Positions 2,534 to 37,583 of a stretch of 53,713 bases of DNA are shown here, one piece after another. A program made the position numbers and the translations under genes. This DNA is from Campylobacterota bacterium (GTDB taxonomy: Bacteria > Campylobacterota > Campylobacteria > Campylobacterales > Sulfurimonadaceae), in NCBI GenBank assembly GCA_034659135.1, contig JAYEGP010000070.1, positions 1 through 53,713 of the forward strand, read 5' to 3'. The notes beneath the pieces were generated by a model, which worked only from the letters and a program-made list of their open reading frames with translations, did no database searches and was not told the DNA's origin. Position 1 is the stretch's first letter, and each line of letters opens with the position of its first letter.

Positions 2534-2536
2534 GGG

Positions 2537-3352: not shown

Positions 3353-3364
3353 AGGAAAACAATA

Positions 3365-3739: not shown

Positions 3740-3762
3740 GATAGTTTTATGGATATAGGTAG

Positions 3763-18423: not shown

Positions 18424-19115
18424 ATGTGACACTTGATACTATGGGTTTTTGCTTTCTTGTAAAGATGCTGTGCCTCTGGTGAAAACATTTCACCATCAAA
18501 AGCAAAAAAAGGCGACCAGGTTTTCATTAAAGATTTTGAATTTTTCCTTACATGTAACATCACCAGACTCGCTGGACGATCTGCTTTTGGATGGACAAAC
18601 TGTGCATCAACCACACGCATATTGACCTTATCTAATGCCGCGCAGATTAGTCCAAACTGCTGAGGATCATAACAGAAAATAAAATGTCCTTTTGGCTTAA
18701 GAAGTTTCGAAACCTTGAAAAAAAACTCATCTAAAGGGAGCGACGTGTTTGAACGCGCGGTTGCGATCATGTCGTGTTCACTTCGTGACGCTCCCTCATG
18801 GTAAAAAGGAGGATTGGAAACGATATAGTCATAAGGCTCTTCTGATGTAAAGTCTCTTAGATCGGTATGATGGATATGATAGGCTATCTTATTGACCTTA
18901 GCATTTTTCGAGGCGTAATGAACAAACTCTTTTTGTAACTCAACCGCCTCAAGATTGACTCTTGGAAAATCTCTAGCCACCAAAAGGCCTAAAACACCAC
19001 TTCCTGCTCCCACATCTAACATACGACCTCTTGGCTCAAACTGACTAATGAATCCATATAAAAAGATCGAATCACTGTTGTATCGATACCCATCAAGAGG
19101 TTGATAAAGTTGCAT
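18420..19115 (-). CDS. SAM-dependent N6-adenine methyltransferase, TrmN6/YfiC-like
   Basis: 231 aa. Motifs DGYRYNSDSIFL, DVGAGSGVLGL (motif I) and IVSNPPFY (motif IV). Confidence 0.7.
   Translation of the reverse strand: MQLYQPLDGYRYNSDSIFLYGFISQFEPRGRMLDVGAGSGVLGLLVARDFPRVNLEAVELQKEFVHYASKNAKVNKIAYHIHHTDLRDFTSEEPYDYIVSNPPFYHEGASRSEHDMIATARSNTSLPLDEFFFKVSKLLKPKGHFIFCYDPQQFGLICAALDKVNMRVVDAQFVHPKADRPASLVMLHVRKNSKSLMKTWSPFFAFDGEMFSPEAQHLYKKAKTHSIKCHI
18548..18557. repeat. Iterated palindrome TTACATGTAA (exact)
   Basis: Inside the methyltransferase CDS, read as L-H-V. The flank gives CTTACATGTAA. Confidence 0.95.
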
Positions 19116-19168: not shown

Positions 19169-19888
19169 ATGATTATCATACCTGCACGACTTGCCTCAAC
19201 ACGTTTTCCTCAAAAGGTTTTAGCCGATATCGGTGGACTTCCAATGGTAGTTCGAACTGCCAATCGTGTCAAGCATCTTGATCGTGTTGTTGTTGCAGCA
19301 GATGATGAACTCATCATCGCTACATGTAAAGCACATGGCATTGAAGCGATGCTCACCTCAACCACGCATAAAAGTGGCACCGATCGTATCAATGAATGCG
19401 CTCAAATACTTGATGTTGACGATGATGAACTCATCATCAATGTCCAAGCGGATGAACCCTTCATAGAAGCCGAAGTGGTAGAGAACCTTATCACGCGTCT
19501 TAAAACACTTCAAAAAGCCAAAGCAGACTTTGTTATGGGAAGCTGCTACAACGCCATCAATGCCGAAGCTGCACAAGATGCCAACCTTGTGAAAGTTGTC
19601 TTAGATGATGTGCATAATGCTATCTATTTTTCGCGTTCCCCTATTCCTTTTAACCGAAGTGGCAGTGCGGTCTATTTTGGGCATATCGGTATTTATGGCT
19701 TTAGTAAAAAAAGTCTGCATGATTTTTGTGGACTTGATGATGCACCGATTGAAGATATTGAAAAACTTGAACAGCTTCGCGCTATCTATCATGGTAAAAA
19801 AATCTCCATGGTAAAAGTAGCGAGTACGGGTTTTGGAATTGATACAATTGAAGATTTGGAGCGTGCTAAGGAGATCTACCAACTATAA
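19169..19888 (+). CDS. kdsB: 3-deoxy-manno-octulosonate cytidylyltransferase (CMP-KDO synthetase)
   Basis: 239 aa. Motifs IIIPARLASTRFPQKVL, HKSGTDRI and NVQADEPF. Confidence 0.9.
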   Translation: MIIIPARLASTRFPQKVLADIGGLPMVVRTANRVKHLDRVVVAADDELIIATCKAHGIEAMLTSTTHKSGTDRINECAQILDVDDDELIINVQADEPFIEAEVVENLITRLKTLQKAKADFVMGSCYNAINAEAAQDANLVKVVLDDVHNAIYFSRSPIPFNRSGSAVYFGHIGIYGFSKKSLHDFCGLDDAPIEDIEKLEQLRAIYHGKKISMVKVASTGFGIDTIEDLERAKEIYQL

Positions 19889-19894: not shown

Positions 19895-21433
19895 TTAGTT
19901 TACTAAATGCTTCCTTTGTGTCAAAGCTTTAACAAGTGATGCGAGTATGGAATGAAATGAATCACTATTGAGATTTATATTCTGTTTGAGTAGCTTAAGA
20001 TTTTTCTCTATCTCACTACGCTCTTCTTGACTTACTAGATAGACCTCTTCAGCTTTTTTAAAAGCCATAGCATCATTATCACGAAGTTTTTTTGCTTTTA
20101 AAAGATGTGATTTAGCTTTGGCAAAATCATGAGCGTACTGTTTTTCATCATTTTGTAATTCAAGTTCAAGCTTATGATCCATTTTTCCTTTACTCTCTTC
20201 ACGCATTTTATAACGTAGGTTTTCAAGTTTATTATTAAGTTCACGCGCTTGAATCGACTGTTTTTTATAGTGTTCCTCATTTAAACTTAGCTGTTTCTTT
20301 TTATTATTATAAGTATCTTCTATCTCTTTAAAATGCTCTTTCTTATTATCGAGTTCTACTAATAATGATCGGTATTTATTTCTTGAATTAATCCACATTT
20401 TGGCGATGGAGAGTACTGAATTAGAGTTCCAGTGCTTACCATCAGGAGTTGTCAGTTCGGGAATAGCGTAACGTTTGCCTCCCTCAATATAGATTTTTCC
20501 AGAGTAGTATCTCAAAAACTTTTCAGCATTTTCACTTTTCAATGTGATCTGCTCAAAAATTTCTGTTGCCATTCTTTGATGCACATCCATAAAATGCTTT
20601 CTAAAAATAAATCCGGCAAAACCGATAAGATAGTTTTTATTTTGAGAAACATAATAGGAGAGTTCTAAAGCTATTTGTGCTCGAATCAGTGAGAGCACAT
20701 GCTTTTCATAATAGTCATTACTAATCTCATCAAAATTTAATTTCTCTTGGAACAGCACAGCCATCACACCATCTAAAAATGTATCTAGGTCTTGTTCTAA
20801 AAAGAACTCATTGTAATGATTTTCAAGATTTTGGGGTTCATAACCATTAAAGCGACGTTCAGATTGATCAATCTCGCTGGGTGCCTTTACCTCTTTTTCA
20901 AGATGAGGCATTGCTTGGAAAATTTTAATGAGGTATTTGCGTTTTTGATTTAAGATGACATCACGATCAGAAAGTCCAAGGGCTTTTTTGATAGCAAATT
21001 GAACGAGCGCTTTTTTATTAACATGCTCATCTGTTTCGGCAAGTTCAGCATTCATAGCACGGCGAGTTCTTCCAAAAATTGCGATTTGATCTTCTCTACC
21101 CTGATAGGGGTAGTCAATATTTCTACGACTGTTTTTAATGATCGTGATAAGTGATTGCAAATGAGAAGAGTCTTGTGGGTTAAGAGAGTAGGGAGTGATT
21201 TTAAATGCTACGCCTTTGTCTAAAGAGAAGCGAAATATCAAAGATCCTGCAGATTCAAAAAAATCACGAAAAGCAATCTTAATTTCACGACTATTTTGCT
21301 CAATTTCAGTATCGCTGTATCGTGACTGGAGATAGTGAAGCAGTGCAAAATTCTCATGTCCGCCCCACTCTTGATTTTTTTTTGGAGTGCTGAGTTTACG
21401 TTTTAAATATCGAAGCGTATCTTGATATATCAC
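19895..21433 (-). CDS. Hypothetical 512-aa protein with a C-terminal coiled-coil, last gene of the Che/Sia supercluster
   Basis: Long ORF whose start overlaps the HD-GYP stop by 4 nt. I recognise no domain. The C-terminal ~170 aa are K/E-rich heptad-like sequence. Confidence 0.5.
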   Translation of the reverse strand: MIYQDTLRYLKRKLSTPKKNQEWGGHENFALLHYLQSRYSDTEIEQNSREIKIAFRDFFESAGSLIFRFSLDKGVAFKITPYSLNPQDSSHLQSLITIIKNSRRNIDYPYQGREDQIAIFGRTRRAMNAELAETDEHVNKKALVQFAIKKALGLSDRDVILNQKRKYLIKIFQAMPHLEKEVKAPSEIDQSERRFNGYEPQNLENHYNEFFLEQDLDTFLDGVMAVLFQEKLNFDEISNDYYEKHVLSLIRAQIALELSYYVSQNKNYLIGFAGFIFRKHFMDVHQRMATEIFEQITLKSENAEKFLRYYSGKIYIEGGKRYAIPELTTPDGKHWNSNSVLSIAKMWINSRNKYRSLLVELDNKKEHFKEIEDTYNNKKKQLSLNEEHYKKQSIQARELNNKLENLRYKMREESKGKMDHKLELELQNDEKQYAHDFAKAKSHLLKAKKLRDNDAMAFKKAEEVYLVSQEERSEIEKNLKLLKQNINLNSDSFHSILASLVKALTQRKHLVN

Positions 21434-22227
21434 TCGTAGACATCCTTAAGGGATTCTCTAATAGCCAAAAATTCATCTAAATGTTCAAAAAAGATATCCA
21501 CTAATTTAGGATCAAAATGCTCACCACGTTCTTCTTTAAAAAGTTTGAAAATACGTTCATCATCCCAAGCTTTTTTATAACATCGATCACTGCCCAAAGC
21601 ATCAAACACATCAGCCATAGCGGTAATCCGACCATATATATGGATCTGTTCACCTTTGAGTTGGCGAGGATAACCGGTACCGTTCCACTTTTCATGATGC
21701 TCATAAGCGACCGTTGCAGCACATTTTAATAAGGGGCGATCAGAGTGAGCTAGCATGTCAAAGCCCAATTGGGCATGGGTATCCATTATCTTACGCTCTT
21801 CATCATTAAAGCGTCCGGGCTTATTGAGCACAGAATCTGGGATTGCAACTTTGCCAATATCGTGCATAGGTGAAGCCTGTTTAAGCATCTCAGTTTCCCA
21901 GTCAGAAAGACCATAATATGTCGCAAAAACTCTAGAGTACTCAGCAACACGCTTAACATGTTGACCCGTCTCTTTTGATCGGCTTTCACCAATGGCACCC
22001 ATAGTAAAGACGACTTCACGTTGTGTCTCTTCTATCTCTTTTTGAAGTTCTTCAACCTCTTGAAGCCGTTTTTGTAACTCATCATACTCTTGACGTTGAC
22101 GTTTATCACTGCGCTCCATGATCTTATTTTGACGCATAAGGTCTTTAATGATTTTATCGGTTGTCTTGGCAAAACTACCTTTTAAATCTTCTAACTCCTT
22201 TATGAGTTTATCTTCTGCTCCTGACAT
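21430..22227 (-). CDS. HD-GYP domain c-di-GMP phosphodiesterase with an N-terminal coiled-coil
   Basis: 265 aa. Motifs HDIGKVAIPDSVLNKPGRF and HHEKWNGTGYP. Confidence 0.85.
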   Translation of the reverse strand: MSGAEDKLIKELEDLKGSFAKTTDKIIKDLMRQNKIMERSDKRQRQEYDELQKRLQEVEELQKEIEETQREVVFTMGAIGESRSKETGQHVKRVAEYSRVFATYYGLSDWETEMLKQASPMHDIGKVAIPDSVLNKPGRFNDEERKIMDTHAQLGFDMLAHSDRPLLKCAATVAYEHHEKWNGTGYPRQLKGEQIHIYGRITAMADVFDALGSDRCYKKAWDDERIFKLFKEERGEHFDPKLVDIFFEHLDEFLAIRESLKDVYE

Positions 22228-22240
22228 GGTATATCCTCTC

Positions 22241-22618
22241 TTACTTTTTAACTACAAGATTGATTGTAAGATGCTCAAAATCATCAATAAAATCTTCTCC
22301 AGCTTCTAAAGCACTTTCATTCTCTTCATCATAAATCCAATTGACTTCAATGGTGTTTTTTTCTCTGTTTTCATCAAGCAGATCAAAAAAGTCAAAGAAG
22401 AGTTTTGAAGAGCTGGAATTAAAATAGATGATCTCCATATTAACCACTGTTTTTTCTGCTGCATTACCTTCAAAATACTCTTCCATCCAATCCATAACAG
22501 GTTTATAAAATTCAAATGTGTTTTCTGGATACGACTTTCCAACCATACTAACAGTTCCAACAGGATCTAATTTGATTTCTGGGGTATATTGAGTTACGCC
22601 AAGCGTTAAGATTTCCAT
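22241..22618 (-). CDS. SiaC-like DUF1987 regulatory phosphoprotein (second copy)
   Basis: 125 aa. About three quarters identical by eye to the 3365..3739 product, including IIYFNSSSSKLFFDFFDLL. Confidence 0.75.
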   Translation of the reverse strand: MEILTLGVTQYTPEIKLDPVGTVSMVGKSYPENTFEFYKPVMDWMEEYFEGNAAEKTVVNMEIIYFNSSSSKLFFDFFDLLDENREKNTIEVNWIYDEENESALEAGEDFIDDFEHLTINLVVKK

Positions 22619-22627
22619 AGTTATTCC

Positions 22628-23176
22628 TTAGTTTTTATTAATTATAGTTTTTAGCGTAAAAAAATAGCGATTCTCACTTGATGGGGTAAAATCATATTCA
22701 ATTTTATCACATCGTCTGGCAATTTCAATAAATCCGATACCGGCACCTTTAGCATGTTTATCTTTACCTGCTTTTCGCTGCTCACGGTATAAGGATCTCA
22801 GCTGATCTTTGTTTAAGCCTTCAACTTCTTTTAGGCGCTTTTCTACTTTAATTTTATCATCAGCGTCAATCTGATTACGGCTCATAATATAATAACTTTT
22901 TTTATCAGGCTCCATACCAACAAGAACAAGACCTTTAGACTCATAGGTATGGTTTGCATCTTGTTTAGATTTCGAATAGTTCATCATATTTTGAGCCAGT
23001 TCAATGAAAATCGTAAAGATGTTCCCAGAGATTTTAATACTTAGCTCATTATTTTGCGCTTCGTGTTCTAAAGCATCCGTCATACCTGCAATCAAAGACT
23101 GCGTTAAACATCCGCCATAGGAAAGAAAAACAATACCGTCTTGCTCAAGAATACTCTCTAGTGCATCAAATTTCAT
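22628..23176 (-). CDS. SiaB-like / RsbW-like GHKL Ser/Thr kinase (second copy)
   Basis: 182 aa. IELAQNMMNYS and HAKGAGIGFIEIARR. Paralogue of the 2813..3352 product. Confidence 0.65.
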   Translation of the reverse strand: MKFDALESILEQDGIVFLSYGGCLTQSLIAGMTDALEHEAQNNELSIKISGNIFTIFIELAQNMMNYSKSKQDANHTYESKGLVLVGMEPDKKSYYIMSRNQIDADDKIKVEKRLKEVEGLNKDQLRSLYREQRKAGKDKHAKGAGIGFIEIARRCDKIEYDFTPSSENRYFFTLKTIINKN

Positions 23177-23230
23177 AATATATTGCTCCTCTTAAGTATG
23201 GTAACATTTTTTACCTACAATGAAATCATT

Positions 23231-24001
23231 CTATTCACTATCAATAAAGACAATTTCACTTTTAATAGGATTGAGTAAAATCGATTTATGTCCCGTACGA
23301 TATTGATAATAGAAGACATTTCTTTTTAAGTTTTTCAAAATCGTTGTATTGTAATAATCAGCATTTGAGCACTTTCCTACAAATAAGAACATAAAAAGAA
23401 GTTTTAGTTTTTGCTCTTCAAAGATTTCATGAGGTTGTGATAAAAAGGTAAATCCATATTTTTTCTGGTTGATTAAATCAAAAAGATAGAGTAAAAAGTC
23501 TTCAAATTTTGTATAAAACCCATTGAGTTGTGCAATTTCATGAAAAAAGTAATAGTAGTTTTCAAGTAAAACTTCCATCTGTAACATCTGAGAAATTTTA
23601 CTTTTTTGATCTTTTTTATTCTTAAAATATTGAGGATTAACGGCCATATAGATATGTTTTCGTTCTGCAGTAGCCGCTTTAAGTGCCTTCATAAATGACT
23701 CACTCTCTTCAAACTGCATGTAATTAAAATTTTCATCAGCCTTATATCGCAATTCGATATCTGCAATGCTAGGATTTGAAAAATCCAGATAGAGGGTTGG
23801 AATCTCGTTATCAATAATGAAATTTCTAATCTTATTAGCGAGATGGGTCTTTCCAGAGCCTTCCTCTGCCAATATTAATGTATTGTTGTAAAGTGTTCGG
23901 TTTTCAAGTGTTACTTTAGCAATACTATTTTTGTATTTTCCTAATATATTTCGCATTAATATTCTCGTTTGTGTGATTTTTTTACATTGAAGTATAGCCA
24001 A
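23231..24001 (-). CDS. Hypothetical protein with a Walker-A-like P-loop
   Basis: 256 aa. LILAEEGSGKTHLANKI followed by an hhhhD-like PTLYLDF. No family recognised. The start may be the internal MRNILG. Confidence 0.4.
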   Translation of the reverse strand: MAILQCKKITQTRILMRNILGKYKNSIAKVTLENRTLYNNTLILAEEGSGKTHLANKIRNFIIDNEIPTLYLDFSNPSIADIELRYKADENFNYMQFEESESFMKALKAATAERKHIYMAVNPQYFKNKKDQKSKISQMLQMEVLLENYYYFFHEIAQLNGFYTKFEDFLLYLFDLINQKKYGFTFLSQPHEIFEEQKLKLLFMFLFVGKCSNADYYNTTILKNLKRNVFYYQYRTGHKSILLNPIKSEIVFIDSE

Positions 24002-24026
24002 TTATAAGAGATTTGCATACGAATTA

Positions 24027-24236
24027 TTACTTAATTTTTGAGCTAATAGTTATCGTATAATTACCAAATTTTTCCATCATACTAAATTGATGTTTATGAC
24101 AAAACGTAGAATTCATCACTTTAAACATCTGATCGGCTTCTTCTTTGGCTTCCTCTCTACTCTGAAAGCTTTGATGTTCACTATAACCACTTTTTAAAAA
24201 ACAACTGCAAGCATTATTAACATCTACTTTATACAT
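24027..24236 (-). CDS. Small hypothetical Cys/His-containing protein
   Basis: 69-aa ORF with CSC and CHKH. It lies 9 nt downstream of the response regulator gene. Coding status is uncertain. Confidence 0.3.
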   Translation of the reverse strand: MYKVDVNNACSCFLKSGYSEHQSFQSREEAKEEADQMFKVMNSTFCHKHQFSMMEKFGNYTITISSKIK

Positions 24237-24245
24237 GTAAAACTC

Positions 24246-25559
24246 CTAAAAATCAAAAATATCATCAAGGTCTTCAACTGCCTCTGTCTCGTTTTGTGGG
24301 ACAAGCATGGAGACTATCGTCTTAGAGTTTGCACTGATCGTATCATCTAAGAAACTAACACTAGGCGCACCTTCATGAAATATCATGCGATTCCATGTGG
24401 TTAAATCATTACTAAAAGCAGTGGTCATTGGTGCCAAAGCTTCTGAGTTCTCACGGAAGGTATTAATCTCAGAAGAGATCGCATCAGAGAGCTCTAATAG
24501 TGCCTGTCCAATTGGATAAGACTCAGTATAAACTGTTAAAATTTTTGCTATTTTTGCAAGATAGGAGTAGATCTGCACAATCTCTTCATCCTCGAGTTCA
24601 CTACTTCCTATCATTAAGAATAGTGAACTGAGTTTACCTAGGTAGATTTCTAACTCCTCAAGATCTTCAACATCCATATAAGAATAGATATGATGTTCGA
24701 GTGATTTTAACGTCTCTACAGGTTTAGCTTCAGGTGTAGCGACCTCAACACTCTCAACAGCAGGTGCAATTGGCTCTTCTGGAGCTAACACGACGGTTTC
24801 AATGGGTAAAGAAAAGCTTATCAGCTTATTTTGTATCTGATACTCACGTACCATAGGGTTTTTCAACATTACGAGTTTTACAAGTTTGGCATCGATCATA
24901 TTAATATTACTCAAAGTAAAATACCGATGGGATTCAGACTCTTCTACTATCACCTCACAGTGTGTGTCAAATTTTAATAAAAGATCGCTAAGGGAGTAAA
25001 TTGCTCGAACGACGTCACTGAGCAATTCACAACGATCGCCTTCAGATAAAAGATAATATTCCCAAAACTCAGACAAGGTATCTTCTGAGGTAATCATAAA
25101 AATAAGCCGACGACTAAAGACCTCTTTTGTGTAGATATTTATAGCATTAGAGTTGAATTTTTTATGATGACGTGATTCAATAAGTGAAAGATAATTTCCA
25201 ATACGGCTATTGAAGATATCAGCATTAATAGGTTTCGAGATATAGTCTTCAGCCCCATTACTTAAAATCTGTCGTTGATAATCACTATCATCAATTGCTG
25301 ATACTGCAATAATCATGACATTTTTATCATTTTGACGAATAAGTCGTGTGGCATCAACACCGTTCATCTCAGGCATCATAATATCCATAAAGACAATACT
25401 ATAGGCTGTCTCTTGAGCTTTTTCTACTGCTAGTTTTCCATTTTCAACCTCATCAATTTCAAAAGAGAAGCCCTCATGTTCATCTAAGTAATCTTCAAGC
25501 AAAAGATTAAGAATCATACGATTATTTTTATTATCATCTACAATCAATATTTTAATCAT
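24246..25559 (-). CDS. Response regulator: N-terminal REC domain plus an uncharacterised ~300-aa C-terminal region
   Basis: 437 aa. ILIVDDNKNNR, phospho-acceptor context VFMDIMMPEMNG, and YISKPI. The C-terminal tail is acidic and ends EDLDDIFDF. Confidence 0.8.
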   Translation of the reverse strand: MIKILIVDDNKNNRMILNLLLEDYLDEHEGFSFEIDEVENGKLAVEKAQETAYSIVFMDIMMPEMNGVDATRLIRQNDKNVMIIAVSAIDDSDYQRQILSNGAEDYISKPINADIFNSRIGNYLSLIESRHHKKFNSNAINIYTKEVFSRRLIFMITSEDTLSEFWEYYLLSEGDRCELLSDVVRAIYSLSDLLLKFDTHCEVIVEESESHRYFTLSNINMIDAKLVKLVMLKNPMVREYQIQNKLISFSLPIETVVLAPEEPIAPAVESVEVATPEAKPVETLKSLEHHIYSYMDVEDLEELEIYLGKLSSLFLMIGSSELEDEEIVQIYSYLAKIAKILTVYTESYPIGQALLELSDAISSEINTFRENSEALAPMTTAFSNDLTTWNRMIFHEGAPSVSFLDDTISANSKTIVSMLVPQNETEAVEDLDDIFDF

Positions 25560-25612
25560 GTTCTACCTTGCATAATTTTATAACCATTATAACTTATTCT
25601 CTTTGACTCGTC

Positions 25613-26353
25613 TCATAATCTCTTAATAAGTTCTGCTGCAAACATTTTATAATCTTTCATCCCTTTCGAGCGACGTGAGTTTAATACAAGGGGATCGCCC
25701 GATTCAAATTGTTTGGCCAGTTTAATATCAATACCAATAGGCGAATAGAGCTTCTCTTCACCAAATGTTGTTTTTACTTTTTCTAGAGCCTCTTTGTGTT
25801 CAGGAATGTGAGGATTAAACATTACCGGTAAAATACTTACCTGTGCTAGATCACGTCCAAGAGTTGTAGCGCTTTGATAAATCGTACGAACCATCTGACC
25901 TACCGCCACAACGCCTAGGTAATGAGGAACAAAAGGTATGACAACAGCATCTGCAACTTCTAAAGAATTTTTTAAAAGTGCATCAAAAGTAGGTGGGGTA
26001 TCAATAATACAATAGTCAAAAAAATCTGCTATTTTTTCATGTTTAAAACGACTTTTAAGTACTCCCCTAAGATCTGTATATTCATAAACATCAAAAAACT
26101 CCAAGGCTGGAGAGAGTGTCAACTGATCATGAACCGTAGGAATAAAGGTTTCACTTAGTGTGGAACCTAAAAAGATAGAGTGTATCCCTAAAGATGAAGA
26201 AGGTCCAGAACCTACACCAATAGAAGCGTGTCCTTGTGTATCAAAATCAAGAAGCAGTACTGAAGCTTCTTTGGCAAGCTCTGAAGCAAGGTTTACTGCT
26301 GTTGTCGTCTTAGCAGAACCCCCTTTTCTATTGCTAATTACAATGGTTTTCAC
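25613..26353 (-). CDS. ParA/MinD-family ATPase (PpfA/ParC-like, associated with the chemosensory cluster)
   Basis: 246 aa with the deviant Walker A NRKGGSAKTT. It is embedded in the che operon. Confidence 0.8.
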   Translation of the reverse strand: MKTIVISNRKGGSAKTTTAVNLASELAKEASVLLLDFDTQGHASIGVGSGPSSSLGIHSIFLGSTLSETFIPTVHDQLTLSPALEFFDVYEYTDLRGVLKSRFKHEKIADFFDYCIIDTPPTFDALLKNSLEVADAVVIPFVPHYLGVVAVGQMVRTIYQSATTLGRDLAQVSILPVMFNPHIPEHKEALEKVKTTFGEEKLYSPIGIDIKLAKQFESGDPLVLNSRRSKGMKDYKMFAAELIKRL

Positions 26354-26603
26354 TCGTATCGAATCCCTCTAATACTTTTTGAAACATTTTTTTCTCTTCA
26401 CCAAAACTAAATTCACAACTGTAGAGCTTTTTATAGGCCATTATTGTCTGTAAGACAGCAAGATGAACATCATCACATGTTGTAAAATCAATGCTGATGT
26501 TTTCAGGTGCTTTCTCTTGAAAAAAGTCACGCATTGTTGCCACTTCATCTTCATAGATTACGGATGTAAACAGAAGTTTATTATCTTCGATTGTAATTGC
26601 CAT
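26334..26603 (-). CDS. Small STAS-like (anti-sigma antagonist fold) protein, tentative
   Basis: 89 aa. The pattern ISIDFTTCDDVHLAVLQTIMAY resembles the STAS core. It overlaps both neighbours. Confidence 0.4.
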   Translation of the reverse strand: MAITIEDNKLLFTSVIYEDEVATMRDFFQEKAPENISIDFTTCDDVHLAVLQTIMAYKKLYSCEFSFGEEKKMFQKVLEGFDTSENHCN

Positions 26604-27379
26604 TAGGAGACCTCTTTTATTGGAAGTTTAATAGATTTAACCATATTTACTAAAACGCTATCGAGCTCAATAACACCTTCGAGTTCTAGATAAGGACTGA
26701 TTTTATAATTTGCTTCACTCTCTTTAATAATTGCCTTATCTACATGGGCGATATCGATAATAGCATCTACTTTAAGTGCAAATTCACATTCATCTCCATG
26801 ATAAAGCAGGAGTTTTTGCAATGAATCTGAGACAACATCAAACTCAACCATAAACTGATCGAGTTGATGTATTGTTGAATTGTAAATACTCATGACACTC
26901 TCATTGATCTCTTTTAATGCTTTATCTTGATCATACTTAGCTGTTTCGAGTATGCTTATAGCTGATTTATGTAACTGTTTGTGAAAACTATTCAACTCTT
27001 TTACAATAGTGCTGACACGCTCATCATATGAGGTGAAGCCATCTAACCACTGACCAAGATTACACGCATGTGCATCGGTAGCTAAATCAAACTCAACACC
27101 TTTCTCAACACTATTCTTTAGTGTTTGCACCCATGTCGTATGCTGTTCTTTTAAGTCCAAAAAAAGCATCTTAAGATCACTGTCAAAGGAGTCAAGGTTT
27201 GTCATCTTTCGAAAATTGACCACTTTAATAACACCTTGTTTATACGACATCATACCGTCCACATATTCATGTGCATTGGGGATATCTGTAATTTTAGGTA
27301 TTTGTGCAATACGTTGAATATATTCTAAATCAATTGCATAACGGTTATTTTTAACTTCAAAAATTATAAGACTTTTCAT
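26603..27379 (-). CDS. CheW-like protein interrupted by a CZB (chemoreceptor zinc-binding) domain
   Basis: 258 aa. The N-terminal CheW half is FEVKNNRYAIDLEYIQRIAQIPKITDIPNAHEYVDGMMSYKQGVIKVVNF. The central CZB signature is HTTWVQ...DAHACNLGQWLDG...FHKQLH. The C-terminal remainder of the CheW fold follows. Confidence 0.7.
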   Translation of the reverse strand: MKSLIIFEVKNNRYAIDLEYIQRIAQIPKITDIPNAHEYVDGMMSYKQGVIKVVNFRKMTNLDSFDSDLKMLFLDLKEQHTTWVQTLKNSVEKGVEFDLATDAHACNLGQWLDGFTSYDERVSTIVKELNSFHKQLHKSAISILETAKYDQDKALKEINESVMSIYNSTIHQLDQFMVEFDVVSDSLQKLLLYHGDECEFALKVDAIIDIAHVDKAIIKESEANYKISPYLELEGVIELDSVLVNMVKSIKLPIKEVS

Positions 27380-27407
27380 GCCAATACCTTGTGAACAATG
27401 TTAAACA

Positions 27408-30152: not shown

Positions 30153-30161
30153 ACTAACTCC

Positions 30162-30527
30162 TTAACTCTGTACTAAAATATTAACATAAGCATTAAGCTG
30201 GTCGGGCTTAATCGGTTTTGTTTCAAACAGATTAGCACCTACTTTATATGCTTCAATCTTGTCAATTTCTTGTGCTTGTGTTGTCACCATAATCACCGGT
30301 GCCATTTTTTGATTAGGCTGTTTACGCAGTTCCTTAACAAAAGAATATCCATCCATAACCGGCATGTTAACATCTACTAAATAGAGGTCAATCTCTGCAT
30401 CTAAACTACGTTCAAGTGCTTCCATGCCATTTTCAGCCTCGACAATAGTTACACCCATCGCTTTAAGAATGGAACCGTGATAGCTCCGTACTGTTTTTGA
30501 ATCATCTACAACCATTACTGTTGCCAT
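30162..30527 (-). CDS. cheY: CheY-like single-domain response regulator
   Basis: 121 aa. VMVVDDS, LVDVNMPVMDG and ETKPI. Confidence 0.85.
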   Translation of the reverse strand: MATVMVVDDSKTVRSYHGSILKAMGVTIVEAENGMEALERSLDAEIDLYLVDVNMPVMDGYSFVKELRKQPNQKMAPVIMVTTQAQEIDKIEAYKVGANLFETKPIKPDQLNAYVNILVQS

Positions 30528-30536
30528 CTTTAGCTC

Positions 30537-30929
30537 CTAAAAAAACTCTATTGCATCGTCATCATTTTCATGATTAACATTTCCAGAAAATGCCTGCTGT
30601 CTATCTTTAGCACGCGCTATTGCCTTTGTTAACTTACTATCTAATGATTCCATACTCCTAAGAGCTATCGTCTCATCTTCTTTGGCAGCATGTTGATACT
30701 GATGTATGCTCTGCTGAACACTTTCAATAGCTTCAATGGTTGCACTCAGTTGTTGAGAAATAATATCTTGATACTGTAAAGCTTCTGCAACATCATCATC
30801 GATCTCTATACTCTTCTTTTCAAGAAAAGCTGAAAGCTTCAAGAGTGAGTTTTTTGAAAGTAGCATCGTCTCTTCTTCAACAATTTTAATATGTCCAAGA
30901 AGTTGATCAACAGAATTTAAAAGTACCAT
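30537..30929 (-). CDS. Short CheZ-like phosphatase candidate
   Basis: 130 aa. LQYQDIISQQLSATIEAIESVQ parallels E. coli CheZ [20 protein letters not shown], with the catalytic Asp and Gln at the same spacing. The acidic/aromatic C-terminus is DDDAIEFF. Confidence 0.45.
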   Translation of the reverse strand: MVLLNSVDQLLGHIKIVEEETMLLSKNSLLKLSAFLEKKSIEIDDDVAEALQYQDIISQQLSATIEAIESVQQSIHQYQHAAKEDETIALRSMESLDSKLTKAIARAKDRQQAFSGNVNHENDDDAIEFF

Positions 30930-30945
30930 AATACAATCTCCTTAT

Positions 30946-31323
30946 TTATGCCGGTAGGCGTAATACTCGCGTGATAGCTTGCTTAAGTTGTGCTGGATTA
31001 AATGGCTTTACAATCCAACCCGTAAGTCCAAGTGCTTTGCCTTGTTGTTTGAGTTCTGCTTTTGTCTCCGTTGTTAACATCAAAGTCGGTGTACGTTTAG
31101 CACTTTCAACTTGACGTAAAGCTTTTAAAAACTCTAATCCATTCATAACAGGCATGTTGAGATCGGTAATAATAAGATCAGGACTAATTACGCCACTTTG
31201 AATCTCAGCTAAAGCTACTTGAGCTTCTAAATACTGTTTTACCTCAATGGGCATACTTTGCGTTACCATTCGTGTCGACGCTAAAGCCGTTTCACTATCA
31301 TCTATAAAAATTACTAATGGCAT
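30946..31323 (-). CDS. CheY-like single-domain response regulator (second)
   Basis: 125 aa. VIFIDDSE, ITDLNMPVMNG and VKPF. Confidence 0.8.
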   Translation of the reverse strand: MPLVIFIDDSETALASTRMVTQSMPIEVKQYLEAQVALAEIQSGVISPDLIITDLNMPVMNGLEFLKALRQVESAKRTPTLMLTTETKAELKQQGKALGLTGWIVKPFNPAQLKQAITRVLRLPA

Positions 31324-31335
31324 ATTATTTCTCCT

Positions 31336-32166
31336 CTATTTTTGATACACTAATGTGGTATCCATTTTTTTTGCATTAAATACCGAAACAATTCGGCTCA
31401 TATATTCAGCATGTCCTAAAAGAACATAGCCACTTGGATTAAGTAGATCATAAAATGTCATTGCTACCTCTTTTCGACTGGCATCATCGAAGTAAATCAT
31501 CATATTTCTTGAAAAAATAATATCAAATTTTCCAAGCTTACGCATTTCAGTACGATCAAAAACATTGACGACTTTAAAATCGACCACACCCATAAGGTCG
31601 TCGATCAAGGTATAGCCTAAGCCTTTCTTGTTAAACCATCGATTTAAAATTGGCTTAGGAATAGCATGAACTGATCGTGGCGTATAGTGTGCTTTTTCCG
31701 CTTTTTGAATGACAGTAGAGTCAATATCAATGCCCACAACCTCAATATCACGCTCTTCAATAATCTTACCCTCTTCTAAAATATGTAAGATCATCGAGTA
31801 AGGCTCTTCTCCTGTTGAACAAGGAGAGGATAAAATACGTAAAGGCACACCTTTAGGACGTGTTTTATGCAGGTCAGGTAAAATATGATTCGCTAAAACT
31901 TCAAACTGATTCACTTCACGGAAAAAATAGGTCTCATTAACAGTCATTCCGTTCATCAGTTCTTGAAATTCAACGCCATCTTTATCTTCAAAACGTACTC
32001 TAAAGAAATATTTTCTAAACGTATCAAATCCTAATGTCGAAATTCGATTATCCACAAACTTGGCTAGTTTTTCATAATGTTTATCTTCTTCAAGATAAAT
32101 ACCACTTTTTCTATAAATAAATTCACTCAGTTTGACAAAATTATCTTTGGAAAGTGCATATGCCAT
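31336..32166 (-). CDS. cheR: Chemotaxis protein methyltransferase CheR
   Basis: 276 aa. ETYFFRE, SSPCSTGEEPYSM and FSRNMMIYFD. Confidence 0.9.
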   Translation of the reverse strand: MAYALSKDNFVKLSEFIYRKSGIYLEEDKHYEKLAKFVDNRISTLGFDTFRKYFFRVRFEDKDGVEFQELMNGMTVNETYFFREVNQFEVLANHILPDLHKTRPKGVPLRILSSPCSTGEEPYSMILHILEEGKIIEERDIEVVGIDIDSTVIQKAEKAHYTPRSVHAIPKPILNRWFNKKGLGYTLIDDLMGVVDFKVVNVFDRTEMRKLGKFDIIFSRNMMIYFDDASRKEVAMTFYDLLNPSGYVLLGHAEYMSRIVSVFNAKKMDTTLVYQK

Positions 32167-32169
32167 AAT

Positions 32170-32793
32170 CTATCCCTGTATCATTCGAATAGCATTATCA
32201 ACACCGAACACAACATAAGGATCGTGGTTAAAATGTTCTTTAAGTGACTCAAGAAGCGCTACATCTTCTGCTTCACCAATTTCTGCCATATAATCCACTG
32301 CAGTCATAGCAACATTAATATCTGCTTCACCCTCTAAAAGTTCAATGAGCATATCTCGTGATTCAGGAAAACTCACATCTCCAAGAACATTAATAGCAAA
32401 AATACGAAGATCTCTATCATCACCAATAAGAAATTTAACAATATAGTACTTTATTGCTTCACCATAATCTTGTAAGACTGAAATAGCCAAATTTCGAATA
32501 TACGCATTATGAAGTTTTAAAAGTTCCATAACCTCTTCAATGGGGGCTTCATCAGGATCCATTGTGGCCAAGACAGCTGCTACTTCAGCGTCAATAGCTT
32601 TACCTGTTGTTGTATCAGAAAGCACTTCAACTAAAAAACTCGCTCCATTTTCAAAAGCGACCATCTCTTCAAGAGCATACTTTCGATGTTCAAAGTCATC
32701 ATATTTTTGAAAATAATCAATCGCTTCTTGAAGATTATCGAAGCTTGGAAAGGATGTCACTTCTTGTTCAAGATGTTTTTTTACAAAAGCCAT
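32170..32793 (-). CDS. HEAT-repeat protein
   Basis: 207 aa. Repeated ..IRNLAISVLQDYG.. / ..LRIFAINVLGDV.. / ..VAMTAVDYMAEIG.. units, located between cheB and cheR. Confidence 0.55.
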   Translation of the reverse strand: MAFVKKHLEQEVTSFPSFDNLQEAIDYFQKYDDFEHRKYALEEMVAFENGASFLVEVLSDTTTGKAIDAEVAAVLATMDPDEAPIEEVMELLKLHNAYIRNLAISVLQDYGEAIKYYIVKFLIGDDRDLRIFAINVLGDVSFPESRDMLIELLEGEADINVAMTAVDYMAEIGEAEDVALLESLKEHFNHDPYVVFGVDNAIRMIQG

Positions 32794-32804
32794 AAATCCT
32801 CCAC

Positions 32805-33863
32805 TTATTTAAATGTTACAATTTTTTTTACGATCTGGTTAAAGTCGAGCTGTTCCATAACGCCACCGATATCATAAGCCACTTTTGGCATACCATACAC
32901 CGTAGCACTTGCTTCACTCTCTCCAATGGTGTAGCCACCATCTTTTTTTATAGCTAAAAGACCTTTAGCTCCATCATCACCAATTCCTGTCAAAATCACA
33001 CCTACGAGATTAGCACCGCCAAAAGTTTTTAATGCACTATGATACATCTCATCCACACTCGGTTGAAAAAACTGATCATTTACATCTTTCTCTTCACGAA
33101 TAACATATTTTCCAGAAACTTTTTTAGCAAAATGCATATGGACACCACCACGAGCCACATAAACATTGCCAGGTAAAAGCTCCATATTATGTGATGACTC
33201 GTGTACAGGCAGTGCACTGACGCGATCAAGACGCGCCGCAAAAGCCTTAGTAAACTGCTCTGGCATATGCTGAACGACACAGACAGGATAACTATAGCTA
33301 GCTGGTAAAGCTGCACATATCTGCTCTATCAAACCTGGCCCACCTGTTGATGAACCTATTAATAATACTTTAGAAATATCTCGACTATCTGTAGTACTCA
33401 CTTCTCGTGTACGTGTCCGTTCTTTACGTTCTCGTAACACCGGTCTGCGAATTTGACGTTTTAAACGACGTCGTGATACTTTGCTTAAGGCCTCTACTTT
33501 TTCAAGAATTTCCTCACGATTTTCTCGTTTTCCTACATTCATAGTACCCGGTTTAGCAATATAGTCAATAGCACCAAGTTCCATCGCTTCTATTGTTGTT
33601 GAAGCGTCTTCAGAGGTTAATGAGCTTACCATTAAAATAGCTGAAGGATTCACTTCCATAATCTTTTTAACAGCACTCAGACCATCCATCACAGGCATAT
33701 TAACATCCATAGTGATAACATCAAAATCAGTTTCTGTTGCTAAATTCACAGCTTCTTGACCATTTTTGGCAATTTCAATCTCAAAACCTAAGGTTTCAAT
33801 CATCTCACGTAACTGTTTTCTAACAAGTGCTGAATCGTCAACTATTAACACTTTTTTACTCAT
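32805..33863 (-). CDS. cheB: Chemotaxis methylesterase CheB (REC plus methylesterase)
   Basis: 352 aa. REC domain VLIVDDSALVR..TMDVNMPVMDG. Esterase blocks GSSTGGP, VVQHMP and GIGDDGA. Confidence 0.9.
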   Translation of the reverse strand: MSKKVLIVDDSALVRKQLREMIETLGFEIEIAKNGQEAVNLATETDFDVITMDVNMPVMDGLSAVKKIMEVNPSAILMVSSLTSEDASTTIEAMELGAIDYIAKPGTMNVGKRENREEILEKVEALSKVSRRRLKRQIRRPVLRERKERTRTREVSTTDSRDISKVLLIGSSTGGPGLIEQICAALPASYSYPVCVVQHMPEQFTKAFAARLDRVSALPVHESSHNMELLPGNVYVARGGVHMHFAKKVSGKYVIREEKDVNDQFFQPSVDEMYHSALKTFGGANLVGVILTGIGDDGAKGLLAIKKDGGYTIGESEASATVYGMPKVAYDIGGVMEQLDFNQIVKKIVTFK

Positions 33864-35242
33864 GCAGCTTCCTTTTTTTGAGTAATCTTATGGATATCAA
33901 ACAGAAGTACAAGACGTGAACCCTCTTCTAAATGAAGTACATGAGAAAAATAATCACCACGTTCGTCTTCTTCTTTGAGCTCGTTTTTTTCAACTCCAAG
34001 AACATCACTAATGCTATCTACATAAAATCCGATGCGGTATTCATTGATCTGACAAATAATGATCTTTTGATCCTGTGATGTAGGTTTTGGTTTTGACAAC
34101 CACTCATAAATAGACATCATCATAACAATTTGTCCACGAATATTAATGATTCCCTCAACAAATTGAGGTGAATCTGCAAAAGGAGTCACCTCTACGGCAT
34201 CAATGATCTCAACAACATCATCAATATTAATGGCGTACTCTTCTTCTCCAAATTTGAACACAACAACTTCAAATTCTACAGGTTTTTCACTCAAAATTTC
34301 TACGGTTCTATCTTTATCATCGATTAAAGCAGCACTTCGTGATGAGAGTTGACGAATCACATCAATTCCAATCAATGAAATTAACTGCTCTTCATCATGA
34401 ATAACTCCAGAAACTTTATTATCTTTAAAATTTGAAGGCATCTCATCAATAAAGTCACTCTCAACATCACGTATATCCAAAATTTCATCCACCACTAGAC
34501 CCAGAGTTTTACCCTTATCTTCTGTCACTAAAATACGATTTTTTTCGGATAAGCTATCGTCAAAAGAGAAAAAACGTCTTAGATCCATAACCACAAGAAG
34601 TTCACCTCTAAGTGCCATCATGCCAAGTACTTCACTAGCACTACCAGCAATTTCTGTAAACTCTTCTGGTAATTTCATAATTTCACGCAAACTGTCAATA
34701 TCAACAGCATAGCGTTCATCCGCCATCTTAATAAAGAGATAGCGTTTTGTGTTCATCTTCTCTTTAGAACTCTCACTATTTCTTATTGATCCGTCTTTTA
34801 CAGTATTGAGCTCATAAGTACTTAGTGTTGCTCTACTTAAAAGAAATGTGATATCAAGAATCTGCACTATTGCATCATGATGTTTATAGATAGCAACGAC
34901 ACCATCACTACTATCTTCTATATGTTCAAGCATTTCAGCATCTACTAAAACCGTATCAGAAACTTCTGGAACAACTAAAGCAGTGCTTTCATTTTTTCCC
35001 ACAAGGCTTAAAAGACGTGTCTTTTCACACTCTATGTCAATAGCAGGTAAGCTTAATAATAAATTGATGTCATAAACTGTTACGATTTTTCCGCTAACAG
35101 AACTTAAGCCCAAGATTGCATCTGAGGTTAAAACCACAGGGGTAAATGCAGGAACTCGTAAAATCTGATTAATGATTTCAGTACTGATTCCATAATAAAC
35201 ACTACCATGTTTTATGATTAGAATCTCTTCAATGCTCATCAT
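33860..35242 (-). CDS. Scaffold protein with three tandem CheW-like domains
   Basis: 460 aa. The pattern (Y)x(I/V)..I.EI....(V/F)TP...(P)..V.G...(R)G.(I/L)V.V.D is repeated three times, at about residues 10-140, 175-300 and 325-455. Confidence 0.75.
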   Translation of the reverse strand: MMSIEEILIIKHGSVYYGISTEIINQILRVPAFTPVVLTSDAILGLSSVSGKIVTVYDINLLLSLPAIDIECEKTRLLSLVGKNESTALVVPEVSDTVLVDAEMLEHIEDSSDGVVAIYKHHDAIVQILDITFLLSRATLSTYELNTVKDGSIRNSESSKEKMNTKRYLFIKMADERYAVDIDSLREIMKLPEEFTEIAGSASEVLGMMALRGELLVVMDLRRFFSFDDSLSEKNRILVTEDKGKTLGLVVDEILDIRDVESDFIDEMPSNFKDNKVSGVIHDEEQLISLIGIDVIRQLSSRSAALIDDKDRTVEILSEKPVEFEVVVFKFGEEEYAINIDDVVEIIDAVEVTPFADSPQFVEGIINIRGQIVMMMSIYEWLSKPKPTSQDQKIIICQINEYRIGFYVDSISDVLGVEKNELKEEDERGDYFSHVLHLEEGSRLVLLFDIHKITQKKEAA

Positions 35243-37128
35243 TAGCCTTGTTGTAATTCATCCGCCATCACGGCCAACTCTTCAACACCTTCACCAATAT
35301 GTGAAATGGTCTCAATAATTAATTCGCTAGCTTTTCGTGACTCCATCGCATTTCTTGCAGAGAGTTCCACTGCTTTTTGAATTTCACTTATTCCGATCAA
35401 TACCTGATTCATGCCTTCAAGGTTTTGGTCATTAATACTCTTTAATCCTGTAAAACGATCTAATAGATCGATAATCATTGTAGTAATGGTCTCAACATCT
35501 TGAACCAAACGATCGATCTGATGGCGTTCGCTTCCCTGTCCACCTAAAAGCTTTAACCAATCCGTACGAACCATGTCAATTTCTGAGTTCATCGATTCAA
35601 TAGTATCATTAATCTTATCGGTATTCTCTTCTGAGTCTTTTGCTAAGTTTCTAATATCTGCACTGACCACAGCAAAACCTTTTCCAAAGTCCCCTGCTCT
35701 TGCCGCTTCAATAGATCCACTAATAGCCAACATATTAAGTTGAATAATAGAATTAGAGATATTACCTACGGTTTTATCAACATTTCGTGTCTCTTTAACA
35801 ATAATTTCAAGCTCACCACCTGCCGTATTACCTTCATTAATAGAGTTTTCAAAGGCTTGTGCAATACCCTTAAGCTCACTACGAACTTCAGTAAAAGAGA
35901 TCTTCAACAGATCGAAATTACGTCGACCAATTTCAATTAAGGCATTGATATCTTTTGAGGCTTCTAAGCCTTCTTCAACTAACTCTTTATTAGACAAAAC
36001 ACTTTGATTCGTTGTGTTAGAGCTTGACTCAATGAGATTAAGCGCATCATTAACCTCTTCAAGTGAACTCTGGATATCTTCCATTGAGCCGCCAATCGTG
36101 TCCGCTGATGTTGCAATCTCTTCTGCTGATTTCATCGTATCAGTTGAAAATTTCAGCTCTTCAGCCAAATCACTCAACTCTTTAATATCATCTTCTGTCT
36201 GAGCTAATGCACTTGATTGAATCTCAATACCATCTAAGGTGCGTTCAACCGAATGTGCAATGTCTTGAGATGCTTTAGCAATATCAGAACTTCCATCATT
36301 AATACTTGAAATAACATTGGCAAGACTTTGAGTAAAATTGTTCATATTACGAGCAGCTTCAACGGTAAAGGTCGCTATTTTAGTTAACTCTTCCATTTTT
36401 TGACTTAGCGTGGTACCTTGATTTCCTGTAACTTCAATAATACCTGTTGTATCTACAATACTTTTAATAATATTGTCAATACTGCCTTGAATCTTATTAA
36501 CAAGGTCTGAGATAAACTCTGCATTTTTTTCGCTCTCTCCAGCAAGTGCACGTGTCTCATCAGCAACCACTGCAAAACCTTTACCATGCTCTTTAGCGCG
36601 ACTTGCTTCAATAGCAGCATTAAGGGCTAGAAGATTCGTTTGATCAGCAATTTTTGCAATAAACCCTACAGCTTCACCAATATTTCCAGAAGACGCCTTA
36701 AGCTCTTCACTCTTCGTAGATGACTGCTTCGCTACCTCAACAGACTCATTCATCCGATCTACAGAGATATTGATAGTATCAACAGCTTTCATGACATTAT
36801 CACCGGTTGAGAGTGTTGATGAGATTACGGTATCAATGCTATTTCCCATACGAGAGATATTTGAATCAATGCCCTTAACATTTTTAAGGGCTTGTTCACT
36901 TGCACCACTATTTTCTTCAGCAGCCGTAGCAATCTGCTCCATAGAAGATTTTAACTGCTCAATCGCACTAACACTCTCTTGAGCATTATCTAAGATGGTC
37001 GTTGCAACTCCAGCAATACTTTCTGAAATCTGTTGCTGTTTTGCTAATGTGCGTTGACGTCGTTTGTCACCTGTCTGTCCTGAAACTACTGCAGCGCTTG
37101 ATCCGCCACCTTTTTTGACTAAAGCCAT
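35242..37128 (-). CDS. Soluble methyl-accepting chemotaxis protein with two signalling (MA) hairpin-tip motifs (DosM-like)
   Basis: 628 aa with no hydrophobic TM segment. Tip 1 is [36 protein letters not shown] (about nt 36544-36648). Tip 2 is [36 protein letters not shown] (about nt 35641-35700). Confidence 0.85.
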
Positions 37129-37142
37129 ATCACTACTCCCTC

Positions 37143-37583
37143 TTAATCTAATGTTGCGTAAAGCTCTTGAGCTTTTTTAATATCTTCACGTGATGGTTTC
37201 ACACGAATAGAAACATATTTGACAGCACCATTAGCATCAGTTGAGCGTAAAACAGTAGCATGCACCCAATAGTAACCACCACCTTTACGAGCATTTTTAA
37301 CATATCCTGTCCAGAAACCTTTACTTTGAACATCATCCCAAAGTGATTTAAAAGCCGCACGAGGCATTTCAGAATGACGTACAACATTATGAGGTTGTCC
37401 CATCAAATCTGCTTTTGTCATATTCGCTACTTTATAGAAAGAGTCACTAGCATAAGTGACAATCCCTTTATCATCTGTCTCAGATAAAAGATAGAGATCA
37501 TCATATAAGACTTCTCCATCTTCTAAAAAAGTTAGCCCTTTGGTACTGATTGCATTATCTTCTGCTGACATCGCTTCCTCCAA
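37143..37583 (-). CDS. Stand-alone Aer/CetB-like PAS domain protein (probable FAD-type redox sensor)
   Basis: 146 aa. [52 protein letters not shown] closely parallels the E. coli Aer PAS core (HNMVRHPDMP..F.DMW..G.PW.G.VKNRRKNG..YWV). Confidence 0.8.

Follow-up and report, generated by a model that had tools for sequence, protein, structure and literature searches.

We analysed a stretch of 53,713 nucleotides of bacterial DNA, called the window throughout, and in particular a run of 20 open reading frames (ORFs) at positions 19895-37583. The names of homologues place the window in the Campylobacterota, near Sulfurimonas and Sulfuricurvum, and the host is probably a member of the Sulfurimonadaceae. 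An earlier note had read the run as one supercluster in which a cytoplasmic chemosensory array is coupled to a SiaB/SiaC partner switch and an HD-GYP phosphodiesterase that degrades cyclic di-GMP (c-di-GMP). From comparison with related loci, we consider it likely that the run is instead three evolutionarily independent units lying side by side, without a dedicated wire between them: a chemosensory cluster of class F9 (37571-24027), a single gene for a P-loop protein (23956-23231) and a Sia-type cassette (23176-19895).

All 20 ORFs were found in the ORF list of the window, all on the minus strand, with intergenic gaps of -20 to +54 nucleotides (nt), or 70 nt before the P-loop gene when its internal start (ATG 23956) is used. 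The earlier note had described this arrangement correctly, and most of its domain names agree with Pfam, which gives the following order. The first half encodes PAS, a methyl-accepting chemotaxis protein with two MCPsignal stretches, a 460-amino-acid (aa) protein with CheW three times, CheB, HEAT_2, CheR and REC. Next come a 130-aa protein with no match, a second REC, CheA (Hpt, H-kinase_dim, HATPase_c and CheW), CheW with CZB, and an 89-aa protein with no match. A ParA-like protein (AAA_31/CbiA), a REC protein with ~300 aa of unassigned sequence, and 69-aa and P-loop proteins with no match lead to DUF6272, SiaC, HD_5 and a 512-aa protein with no match. No transmembrane-like segment was found in any of the 20 proteins. 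The first ten genes form the core of the F9 cluster:

37143-37571, minus strand: small, soluble PAS protein (PAS_3/PAS_9/PAS), first gene of the cluster and likely sensory input
35242-37128, minus strand: DosM-type cytoplasmic chemoreceptor with two tandem signalling domains (two MCPsignal stretches, E=7e-50) and no transmembrane segment
33860-35242, minus strand: CheW3 adaptor with three CheW domains (three CheW stretches, E=2e-69), kept in relatives
32805-33863, minus strand: CheB methylesterase with REC (CheB_methylest and Response_reg)
32170-32793, minus strand: HEAT-repeat protein between cheB and cheR (HEAT_2), in the same position in all relatives
31336-32166, minus strand: CheR methyltransferase (CheR, E=1.5e-47)
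30946-31323, minus strand: CheY-like single-domain response regulator (a) (Response_reg; relatives 80-89% identical)
30537-30929, minus strand: 130-aa protein between the two cheY genes, by its motifs a candidate small CheZ-like phosphatase or docking protein
30162-30527, minus strand: CheY-like single-domain response regulator (b) (Response_reg, E=1e-26)
27408-30152, minus strand: CheA histidine kinase (Hpt, H-kinase_dim, HATPase_c and CheW)

Class F9 is defined by DosM, a receptor with two tandem signalling domains, and by CheW3, an adaptor with three CheW domains (PMC9321776). Both signatures are present here, in the 628-aa receptor with its two MCPsignal stretches and in the 460-aa protein with its three CheW stretches (232 bits), and CheA, CheY, CheB and CheR are encoded in full within the one cluster, in the same order in relatives. 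These features identify 24027-37571 as a complete F9 cluster, of a type already reported in the phylum: full F9 clusters occur in ~2% of representative species, the Campylobacterota included, and have spread by horizontal transfer (PMC9321776), with which PMC9239204 agrees. The likeness to Vibrio cholerae cluster I that had been proposed for this part of the run is upheld by the DosM-type receptor, CheW3 and the matching gene order. By analogy with that cluster, the genes would build a cytoplasmic, two-layer array.

Details of the earlier annotation needed correction. The gene labelled CheW does belong to the CheW family, and its product is the triple-domain CheW3. The Aer-like gene placed at 37583 does encode a PAS domain, and its start is probably the ATG at 37571, which is preceded by a GGAGGA ribosome-binding site, rather than the TTG at 37583. 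Directly upstream of this gene lies rpsO. The 130-aa protein had no match in Pfam, NCBIfam or a profile search of PDB sequences. Its motif QYQDIIxQQL is invariant and has D-x3-Q spacing, which is that of the CheZ active site, and its tail always ends in FF (EFF in 30/31 orthologues and DFF in one; EFF in 14/14 aligned sequences). From these motifs the protein may be a compact phosphatase of phosphorylated CheY with a docking peptide. None of the three REC proteins (the two CheY-like regulators and the 437-aa regulator described below) carries a GGDEF, EAL or HD-GYP domain by Pfam.

The core is followed by five further genes that belong to the same conserved cluster:

26603-27379, minus strand: CheW-like protein with a CZB zinc-binding domain (CheW and CZB), found after cheA in relatives in one or two copies
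26334-26603, minus strand: 89-aa protein, probable partner of the ATPase, overlapping the ParA-like gene by 20 nt
25613-26353, minus strand: ParA/MinD-type ATPase (AAA_31 at 99 bits, CbiA, ParA, MipZ; relatives 73-87% identical)
24246-25559, minus strand: 437-aa response regulator, near-terminal gene of the cluster (Response_reg), with an invariant DDIFDF tail
24027-24236, minus strand: 69-aa Cys/His protein (small69), last conserved F9 gene, after the 437-aa regulator in 53/59 loci

In the CheW-CZB protein only the first 80 positions of the CheW profile match, with the CZB domain directly next. It looks as if the zinc-binding domain splits the CheW fold or has taken the place of half of it; tandem pairs of such genes are common in relatives. 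The 20-nt overlap of the 89-aa and ParA-like genes recurs in the six relatives whose gene calls were read. In the 89-aa protein C43 and H47 are invariant and most orthologues have a Cys near the C-terminus. It had been labelled STAS-like, which profile searches did not bear out: there was no match in Pfam or NCBIfam, a profile search of the PDB was empty, and the hhalign probability of its alignment with SiaC was 0.3%. The neighbouring ATPase has a deviant Walker A motif (KGGSAKT, residues 10-16), and together the two proteins probably position or partition the cytoplasmic array, as do ATPases of this type in other chemosensory systems.

The 437-aa regulator has orthologues at more than 150 loci. 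Its structural model (mean predicted local distance difference test score, pLDDT, 82.5) comprises REC (1-131), an alpha/beta domain (150-252) and a helical bundle (297-419) with a disordered linker; Foldseek returned only REC-domain matches, leaving the two C-terminal domains without assignable relatives. In some relatives its upstream neighbour is a histidine kinase (L082, by Pfam) or a PAS-containing ORF (L113, L123 and L131), and elsewhere the gene directly downstream encodes an Hpt protein or hybrid kinase. Because such kinase genes adjoin the regulator, its phosphodonor may not be CheA. The small69 protein that follows has a conserved CsC...FC.KH pattern.

The second unit is a single gene:

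23231-23956, minus strand: 241-aa P-loop 'ATP-binding protein' (no Pfam match), with homologues in unrelated contexts

This gene uses the internal start that the earlier note had allowed for: from ATG 23956 it encodes 241 aa, against 239-245 aa in homologues. The family is large: we found 402 homologues, the best 60-66% identical and named 'ATP-binding protein' in Sulfurimonas and Sulfuricurvum. Their neighbourhoods are unrelated; one stands alone before a REC gene (L094), and another, in a complete Sulfurimonas genome (L096), lies before a YjeF-type gene. Membership of either flanking module was considered and rejected, the gene being absent from all F9 and cassette loci and widespread elsewhere. 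A TATACT -10-like element ~40 nt upstream of the ATG, common to L094, suggests that the gene has its own promoter. From these contexts we regard it as an independent, widespread, stand-alone gene.

The third unit is a cassette of four genes:

22628-23176, minus strand: SiaB-family serine/threonine kinase (DUF6272, E=1e-33)
22241-22618, minus strand: SiaC-family phosphoprotein (DUF1987; Pfam SiaC, 129 bits against a cut-off of 24.5)
21430-22227, minus strand: predicted HD-GYP c-di-GMP phosphodiesterase whose ~75 N-terminal aa form a conserved helical region (HD_5, 117 bits against 27.2)
19895-21433, minus strand: 512-aa coiled-coil protein, overlapping the HD-GYP gene by 4 nt and following that gene in 5/5 homologue contexts

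The SiaB-like, SiaC-like and HD-GYP proteins announced for this part of the run are confirmed by family profiles and intact motifs. The kinase reached 142 bits with the NCBIfam model SiaB_fam_kinase (cut-off 85) and 83 with the equivalog model kinase_SiaB (cut-off 225), and matched Pseudomonas aeruginosa SiaB (6KKO_A) with E=2e-14; its scores identify it as a member of the family and not as an equivalog. The SiaC-like protein matched 6KKO_C (E=3e-18), with N67-S68-S69 aligned on N67-T68-S69, and scored below the equivalog cut-off (98 against 150). Its loop, FNSSSSK, is invariant in six copies of the cassette. So are the HD-GYP motifs (MHDIGK, HHEKW and GTGYP), which are intact. The HD-GYP protein is 68-79% identical across cassette loci, its N-terminus included.

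The four genes keep the order DUF6272-SiaC-HD_5-512aa in all five of the other distinct cassette loci (L089, L090, L091, L097 and L099), where the HD-GYP and 512-aa genes also overlap by 1-4 nt, as they do in the window (21430-21433). The overlap suggests translational coupling and perhaps a complex of the two products. In the structural model of the 512-aa protein (pLDDT 87.9), a globular domain (1-335) is followed by a long antiparallel coiled coil (337-505). The protein had no match in Pfam, NCBIfam or PADLOC, and Foldseek returned coiled coils only, with nothing below E=0.03 (PDB) or 0.005 (BFVD); it has 22 close homologues, and a profile search gave 260 representative clusters. We also considered an anti-phage defence system built of P-loop, HD and coiled-coil proteins and rejected it, as PADLOC gave only marginal P-loop matches and generic HD matches (Cas3 HD), over short stretches and with E>=2e-6.

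What the window cassette does not have is a phosphatase. In 4/4 cassette loci with a visible upstream gene (L089, L090, L097 and L099) a sensor-SpoIIE (PP2C) protein precedes the cassette, with the architectures FIST-PAS-SpoIIE, SBP-PAS-SpoIIE followed by a REC gene, FIST-SpoIIE and CHASE8-PAS-SpoIIE. A Pfam scan of 40 window ORFs gave no SpoIIE/PP2C domain, and the 20 genes of the run include no GGDEF domain. The cassette would have arrived without its phosphatase or lost it; any phosphatase that serves it must be encoded elsewhere in the genome.

One of these loci, L090, shows two further peculiarities. It contains two DUF6272-SiaC pairs (1197-2130 and 8301-9234) that are 100% identical over 934 nt, one after a CheB gene and the other after the sensor-PP2C and REC genes, with a paralogue of the 512-aa gene directly after the same locus; such identity reflects either a duplication of very recent date or an error of assembly. 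An unrelated 291-aa protein encoded before the CheB gene (L090:1-153) ends in DGVEFF, which may be compared with the DDIFDF tail of the 437-aa regulator (window 24246-24266). Recurrent acidic-aromatic C-terminal tails in Che-associated proteins may represent a shared docking motif.

The division of the run rests on a comparative census. Orthologous loci were gathered in two ways, from homologues of the 437-aa regulator and from a metagenome scan in which only the non-REC part of the regulator was aligned, giving 80 metagenome loci and nine more that represent six distinct places. (Alignment of the full-length regulator with genome contigs had picked up generic REC motifs, with L001 as the sole true orthologue.) Wherever the DNA reaches, the order is invariant: CheW3-CheB-HEAT-CheR-CheY-130aa-CheY-CheA-CheW/CZB (one or two copies)-89aa-ParA-437aa-69aa, with an extra histidine kinase before the regulator in some lineages. 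The conserved F9 cluster thus ends with the 69-aa gene at 24027.

To census the linkage, we took the loci with at least 1 kb of downstream DNA, 59 from metagenomes and 6 further distinct ones, which form 62 clusters at 95% regulator identity and 34 at 70%. A homologue of SiaB, SiaC, the 512-aa protein or the P-loop protein was found downstream in 0/59 and 0/6, respectively. Conversely, F9 linkage was absent from all 5 of the other distinct SiaB-SiaC-HD-GYP-512aa cassette loci. The earlier note had itself proposed a co-occurrence census and had named absence of the linkage from related genomes as grounds for giving up the coupling; that absence is what the 65 F9 loci show. Taken with the insertion at the junction described next, it leaves the single supercluster without comparative backing.

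The far edge of the run is marked by two synteny anchors:

19169-19888, plus strand: cytidylyltransferase gene (CTP_transf_3), anchor at the far edge of the insertion
18420-19115, minus strand: MTS-type methyltransferase gene (MTS), second anchor, 64-78% identical and in the same position in relatives

In the closest relatives (L082/L083, L086 and L087/L088) ~10-20 nt separate the 69-aa gene from the 3' end of a CTP_transf_3 gene that runs towards it, and the MTS gene comes after that. In L082, L086 and L087 this neighbour of small69 shares 77-91% amino-acid identity with the cytidylyltransferase gene of the window. In the window, the ~4.1 kb at 19895-24026 lie exactly between the two convergent stop codons. 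Because small69 abuts the same cytidylyltransferase gene in the closest relatives, we interpret 19895-24026 as an insertion into a variable slot. The direct small69|CTP_transf_3 junction followed by MTS was present in 18/59 metagenome loci, and the rest had other neighbours or inserts; in 9/59 the cytidylyltransferase gene lies 0.6-6.7 kb away with different inserts between (L134, L141, L146, L148, L150, L151, L160, L166 and L179), for example VanY and M99 peptidases, a PDDEXK (PD-(D/E)XK) transposase (L160) or a dCache-PAS-HD-GYP protein. What has been inserted thus varies with the lineage, and the convergent junction is evidently an insertion hot spot.

The contents of the slot include signalling genes, all on the same strand as the cluster and 11-136 nt after small69: Hpt-HDOD in L147, L159, L162 and L169, HDOD in L163, dCache-PAS-HD-GYP in L151, and hybrid histidine kinases with Hpt in L084, L102 and L112 (L115 has a similar large PAS-containing ORF, identified without a Pfam scan). 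They also include genes with no signalling role, namely VanY and M99 peptidases, the transposase, a T2SSE ATPase, a cytochrome and grpE-dnaK.

On the interpretation that we favour, three independent units, the P-loop gene and the cassette would have been inserted into a permissive slot between the convergent ends of small69 and the cytidylyltransferase gene. The cassette itself is most likely a Sia-type partner switch aimed at c-di-GMP breakdown. If it works as SiaABCD does in P. aeruginosa, the SiaB-like kinase would phosphorylate SiaC on Ser68, and a PP2C phosphatase under the control of its own sensory domain would reverse this. Phosphodiesterase activity would then change when SiaC in its unphosphorylated form binds a helical stalk, for which the N-terminal helices of the HD-GYP protein and the 512-aa coiled coil are the two candidates. 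The window copy would depend on a PP2C encoded elsewhere, be locked in one state or have acquired another input.

Several observations weigh against this interpretation. The genome was sampled through this 53.7-kb window only. The base composition of the cassette (GC fraction 0.357, against 0.367 for the cluster) does not mark it as foreign. Short gaps (70, 54, 9, 13 and -4 nt) separate the genes from small69 onwards, and small69 itself has no terminator-like hairpin behind it, so read-through from the F9 operon is possible. The phosphatase is missing exactly behind a cluster with three REC proteins, which leaves room for a replacement input. Finally, the ~367 kb of DNA downstream of related clusters contain six HD-type matches (HDOD or HD-GYP), every one of them in the gene that comes first after small69. 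Such a pattern hints that HD-superfamily signalling proteins recurrently associate with the cluster end; it is a lead, not a result, as the matches represent three architectures and three or four independent events, and the background estimate is rough. From the sequence, co-transcription or cross-talk in this one organism is possible.

The alternative that makes most use of these points holds that the modules are coupled only loosely: they would be co-expressed by read-through, and the 3' end of the cluster would recruit HD-superfamily and phosphorelay genes that serve the same physiology, with no wire at the protein level. The short gaps, the lack of a terminator-like site after small69 and the position of every HD-type match fit this view, as do the Hpt-HDOD, HDOD and dCache-PAS-HD-GYP proteins and hybrid kinases that fill the slot in other lineages. 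We nevertheless think it unlikely. The same slot holds the non-signalling genes listed above, the events are few, and the -10-like elements that precede the P-loop gene and siaB suggest that each is transcribed from a start of its own. (Consensus scans for promoter-like and terminator-like sites are uninformative here, since the counts do not exceed those in shuffled sequence.) Chance adjacency is also plausible because these bacteria encode very many c-di-GMP and two-component genes; one survey gives up to 137 c-di-GMP enzymes in Campylobacterota (PMC9239204).

A more specific proposal, which we consider quite unlikely, is that a Sia switch that had lost its own sensor phosphatase was taken up behind the F9 operon, in the slot where other lineages have HDOD, HD-GYP or Hpt/hybrid-kinase genes, and that the array sets c-di-GMP hydrolysis through the 437-aa regulator or through shared transcription. 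If true, the F9 class would count in Campylobacterota as a system directed at c-di-GMP.

The model of the earlier note is stronger still, in that the array would be wired through SiaB and SiaC to the HD-GYP enzyme; on such a model a Che component, for instance the 437-aa regulator, would replace the SiaA-type phosphatase. The window cassette does lack the sensor-PP2C gene that precedes the cassette in each of the four other visible loci, and in L090 a CheB gene lies directly upstream of a DUF6272-SiaC pair. The common strand and short gaps also speak for the model, but co-directionality is weak evidence of coupling, because the stretch from ~20 to 50 kb has negative GC skew and the majority of neighbouring genes are likewise on the minus strand; an inserted cassette would therefore often take this orientation anyway. 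Against it stand the absent linkage in both directions of the census, the nature of the junction as an insertion slot, and the unrelated P-loop gene with its promoter-like element between the modules. The F9 proteins contain no PP2C domain and have no detectable similarity to SiaB or SiaC: hhalign found no relation between the C-terminus of the regulator and SiaB or between the 89-aa protein and SiaC, and there are therefore no hidden Sia-like parts inside the cluster. The three REC proteins, moreover, lack a c-di-GMP domain. We judge a wired pathway to be very unlikely.

An ancestral linkage, lost from all sampled relatives by deletion of the five genes, is scarcely credible and much less parsimonious than one insertion here: although the cassette resembles the cluster in composition, at least 34 diverged lineages would have required many independent, precise deletions that all restored the small69|cytidylyltransferase junction, other lineages carry different inserts at the same place, and elsewhere the cassette occurs with its own phosphatase and without F9 genes.

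Outside the run, but no more than 10 kb away from the cluster, are a gene for a RelA/SpoT (p)ppGpp enzyme (45652-47865, minus strand) and flhA (FHIPEP; 38585-40777, plus strand). The left end of the window (1-4713) is a low-GC stretch (0.33) that carries a gene for a HipA_C toxin-like kinase (901-2166) and one for an AraC-type regulator (3763-4713), and may be a separate mobile or toxin-antitoxin island.

Compared with known systems, the F9 block is closest to V. cholerae cluster I. Both have a DosM-type receptor and CheW3, both follow the order receptor-CheW-CheB-small protein-CheR-CheY...CheA, both encode soluble proteins throughout, and both are of a kind acquired whole. The window differs in its extension (CheW-CZB, 89-aa, ParA-like, 437-aa and 69-aa proteins) and in the 130-aa protein between the two CheYs, with its D-x3-Q spacing and EFF tail. 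To our knowledge, which is of the cluster as described and not from direct sequence comparison, neither the 3' extension nor the 130-aa protein belongs to the V. cholerae cluster. PpfA/TlpT of Rhodobacter sphaeroides and ParC/ParP of Vibrio are familiar cases in which a ParA-type system positions chemosensory arrays. As in those systems, a ParA/MinD-type ATPase with a deviant Walker A motif is encoded in the cluster for a predicted cytoplasmic array; unlike them, the candidate partner is an 89-aa Cys/His protein that resembles neither ParP nor TlpT. Handles on array positioning and signal termination are offered by the ATPase with its 89-aa candidate partner, the three-domain regulator and the possible mini-CheZ. 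The recurrence of HD-type and phosphorelay genes behind the cluster lends itself to a statistical test on complete genomes.

A wired link from F9 arrays to c-di-GMP would have been a real advance; the comparative evidence does not support one here. Wsp, on which the earlier note drew for its analogy, is likewise a chemosensory pathway with a c-di-GMP output. There, however, the response regulator WspR itself carries GGDEF and the genes are conserved together, neither of which holds for this run.

For the cassette, the nearest relative is SiaABCD (PMC8457831, PMC7647112). In P. aeruginosa, T68 of SiaC is phosphorylated by SiaB, and unphosphorylated SiaC binds the coiled-coil stalk of SiaD through its loop (PMC8457831). 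The cassette shares the adjacent SiaB and SiaC families, the N67-(S/T)68-S69 loop and a next gene for a c-di-GMP enzyme with an N-terminal helical region, and at its other loci a sensor-PP2C gene precedes it, like siaA. It differs in that its output is an HD-GYP phosphodiesterase rather than the GGDEF cyclase SiaD, in its fourth conserved gene (512 aa), in scores below the SiaB and SiaC equivalog cut-offs and, in the window copy, in having no PP2C nearby.

The same logic has been predicted in the same phylum from gene neighbourhoods: in modules of PP2C, STAS-kinase and STAS proteins of Campylobacterota, a sensory PP2C and a kinase would regulate a c-di-GMP turnover enzyme through a phosphoprotein (PMC9239204). 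That survey searched with SpoIIE and HATPase_c_2 (PF13581), and its accessible part makes no mention of DUF6272, DUF1987, an HD-GYP output or the 512-aa family. The literature that we searched yielded no paper on DUF6272, on the 512-aa family or on an HD-GYP enzyme under the control of a partner switch, and no experimental description of such a cassette. The cassette would extend the Sia principle from activation of a cyclase to control of a phosphodiesterase, and would add to it a protein with no known structural relative. By gene content and order, we class the F9 block as a new member of a class known in the phylum, and the cassette as a variant of the SiaABCD kind with a phosphodiesterase output.

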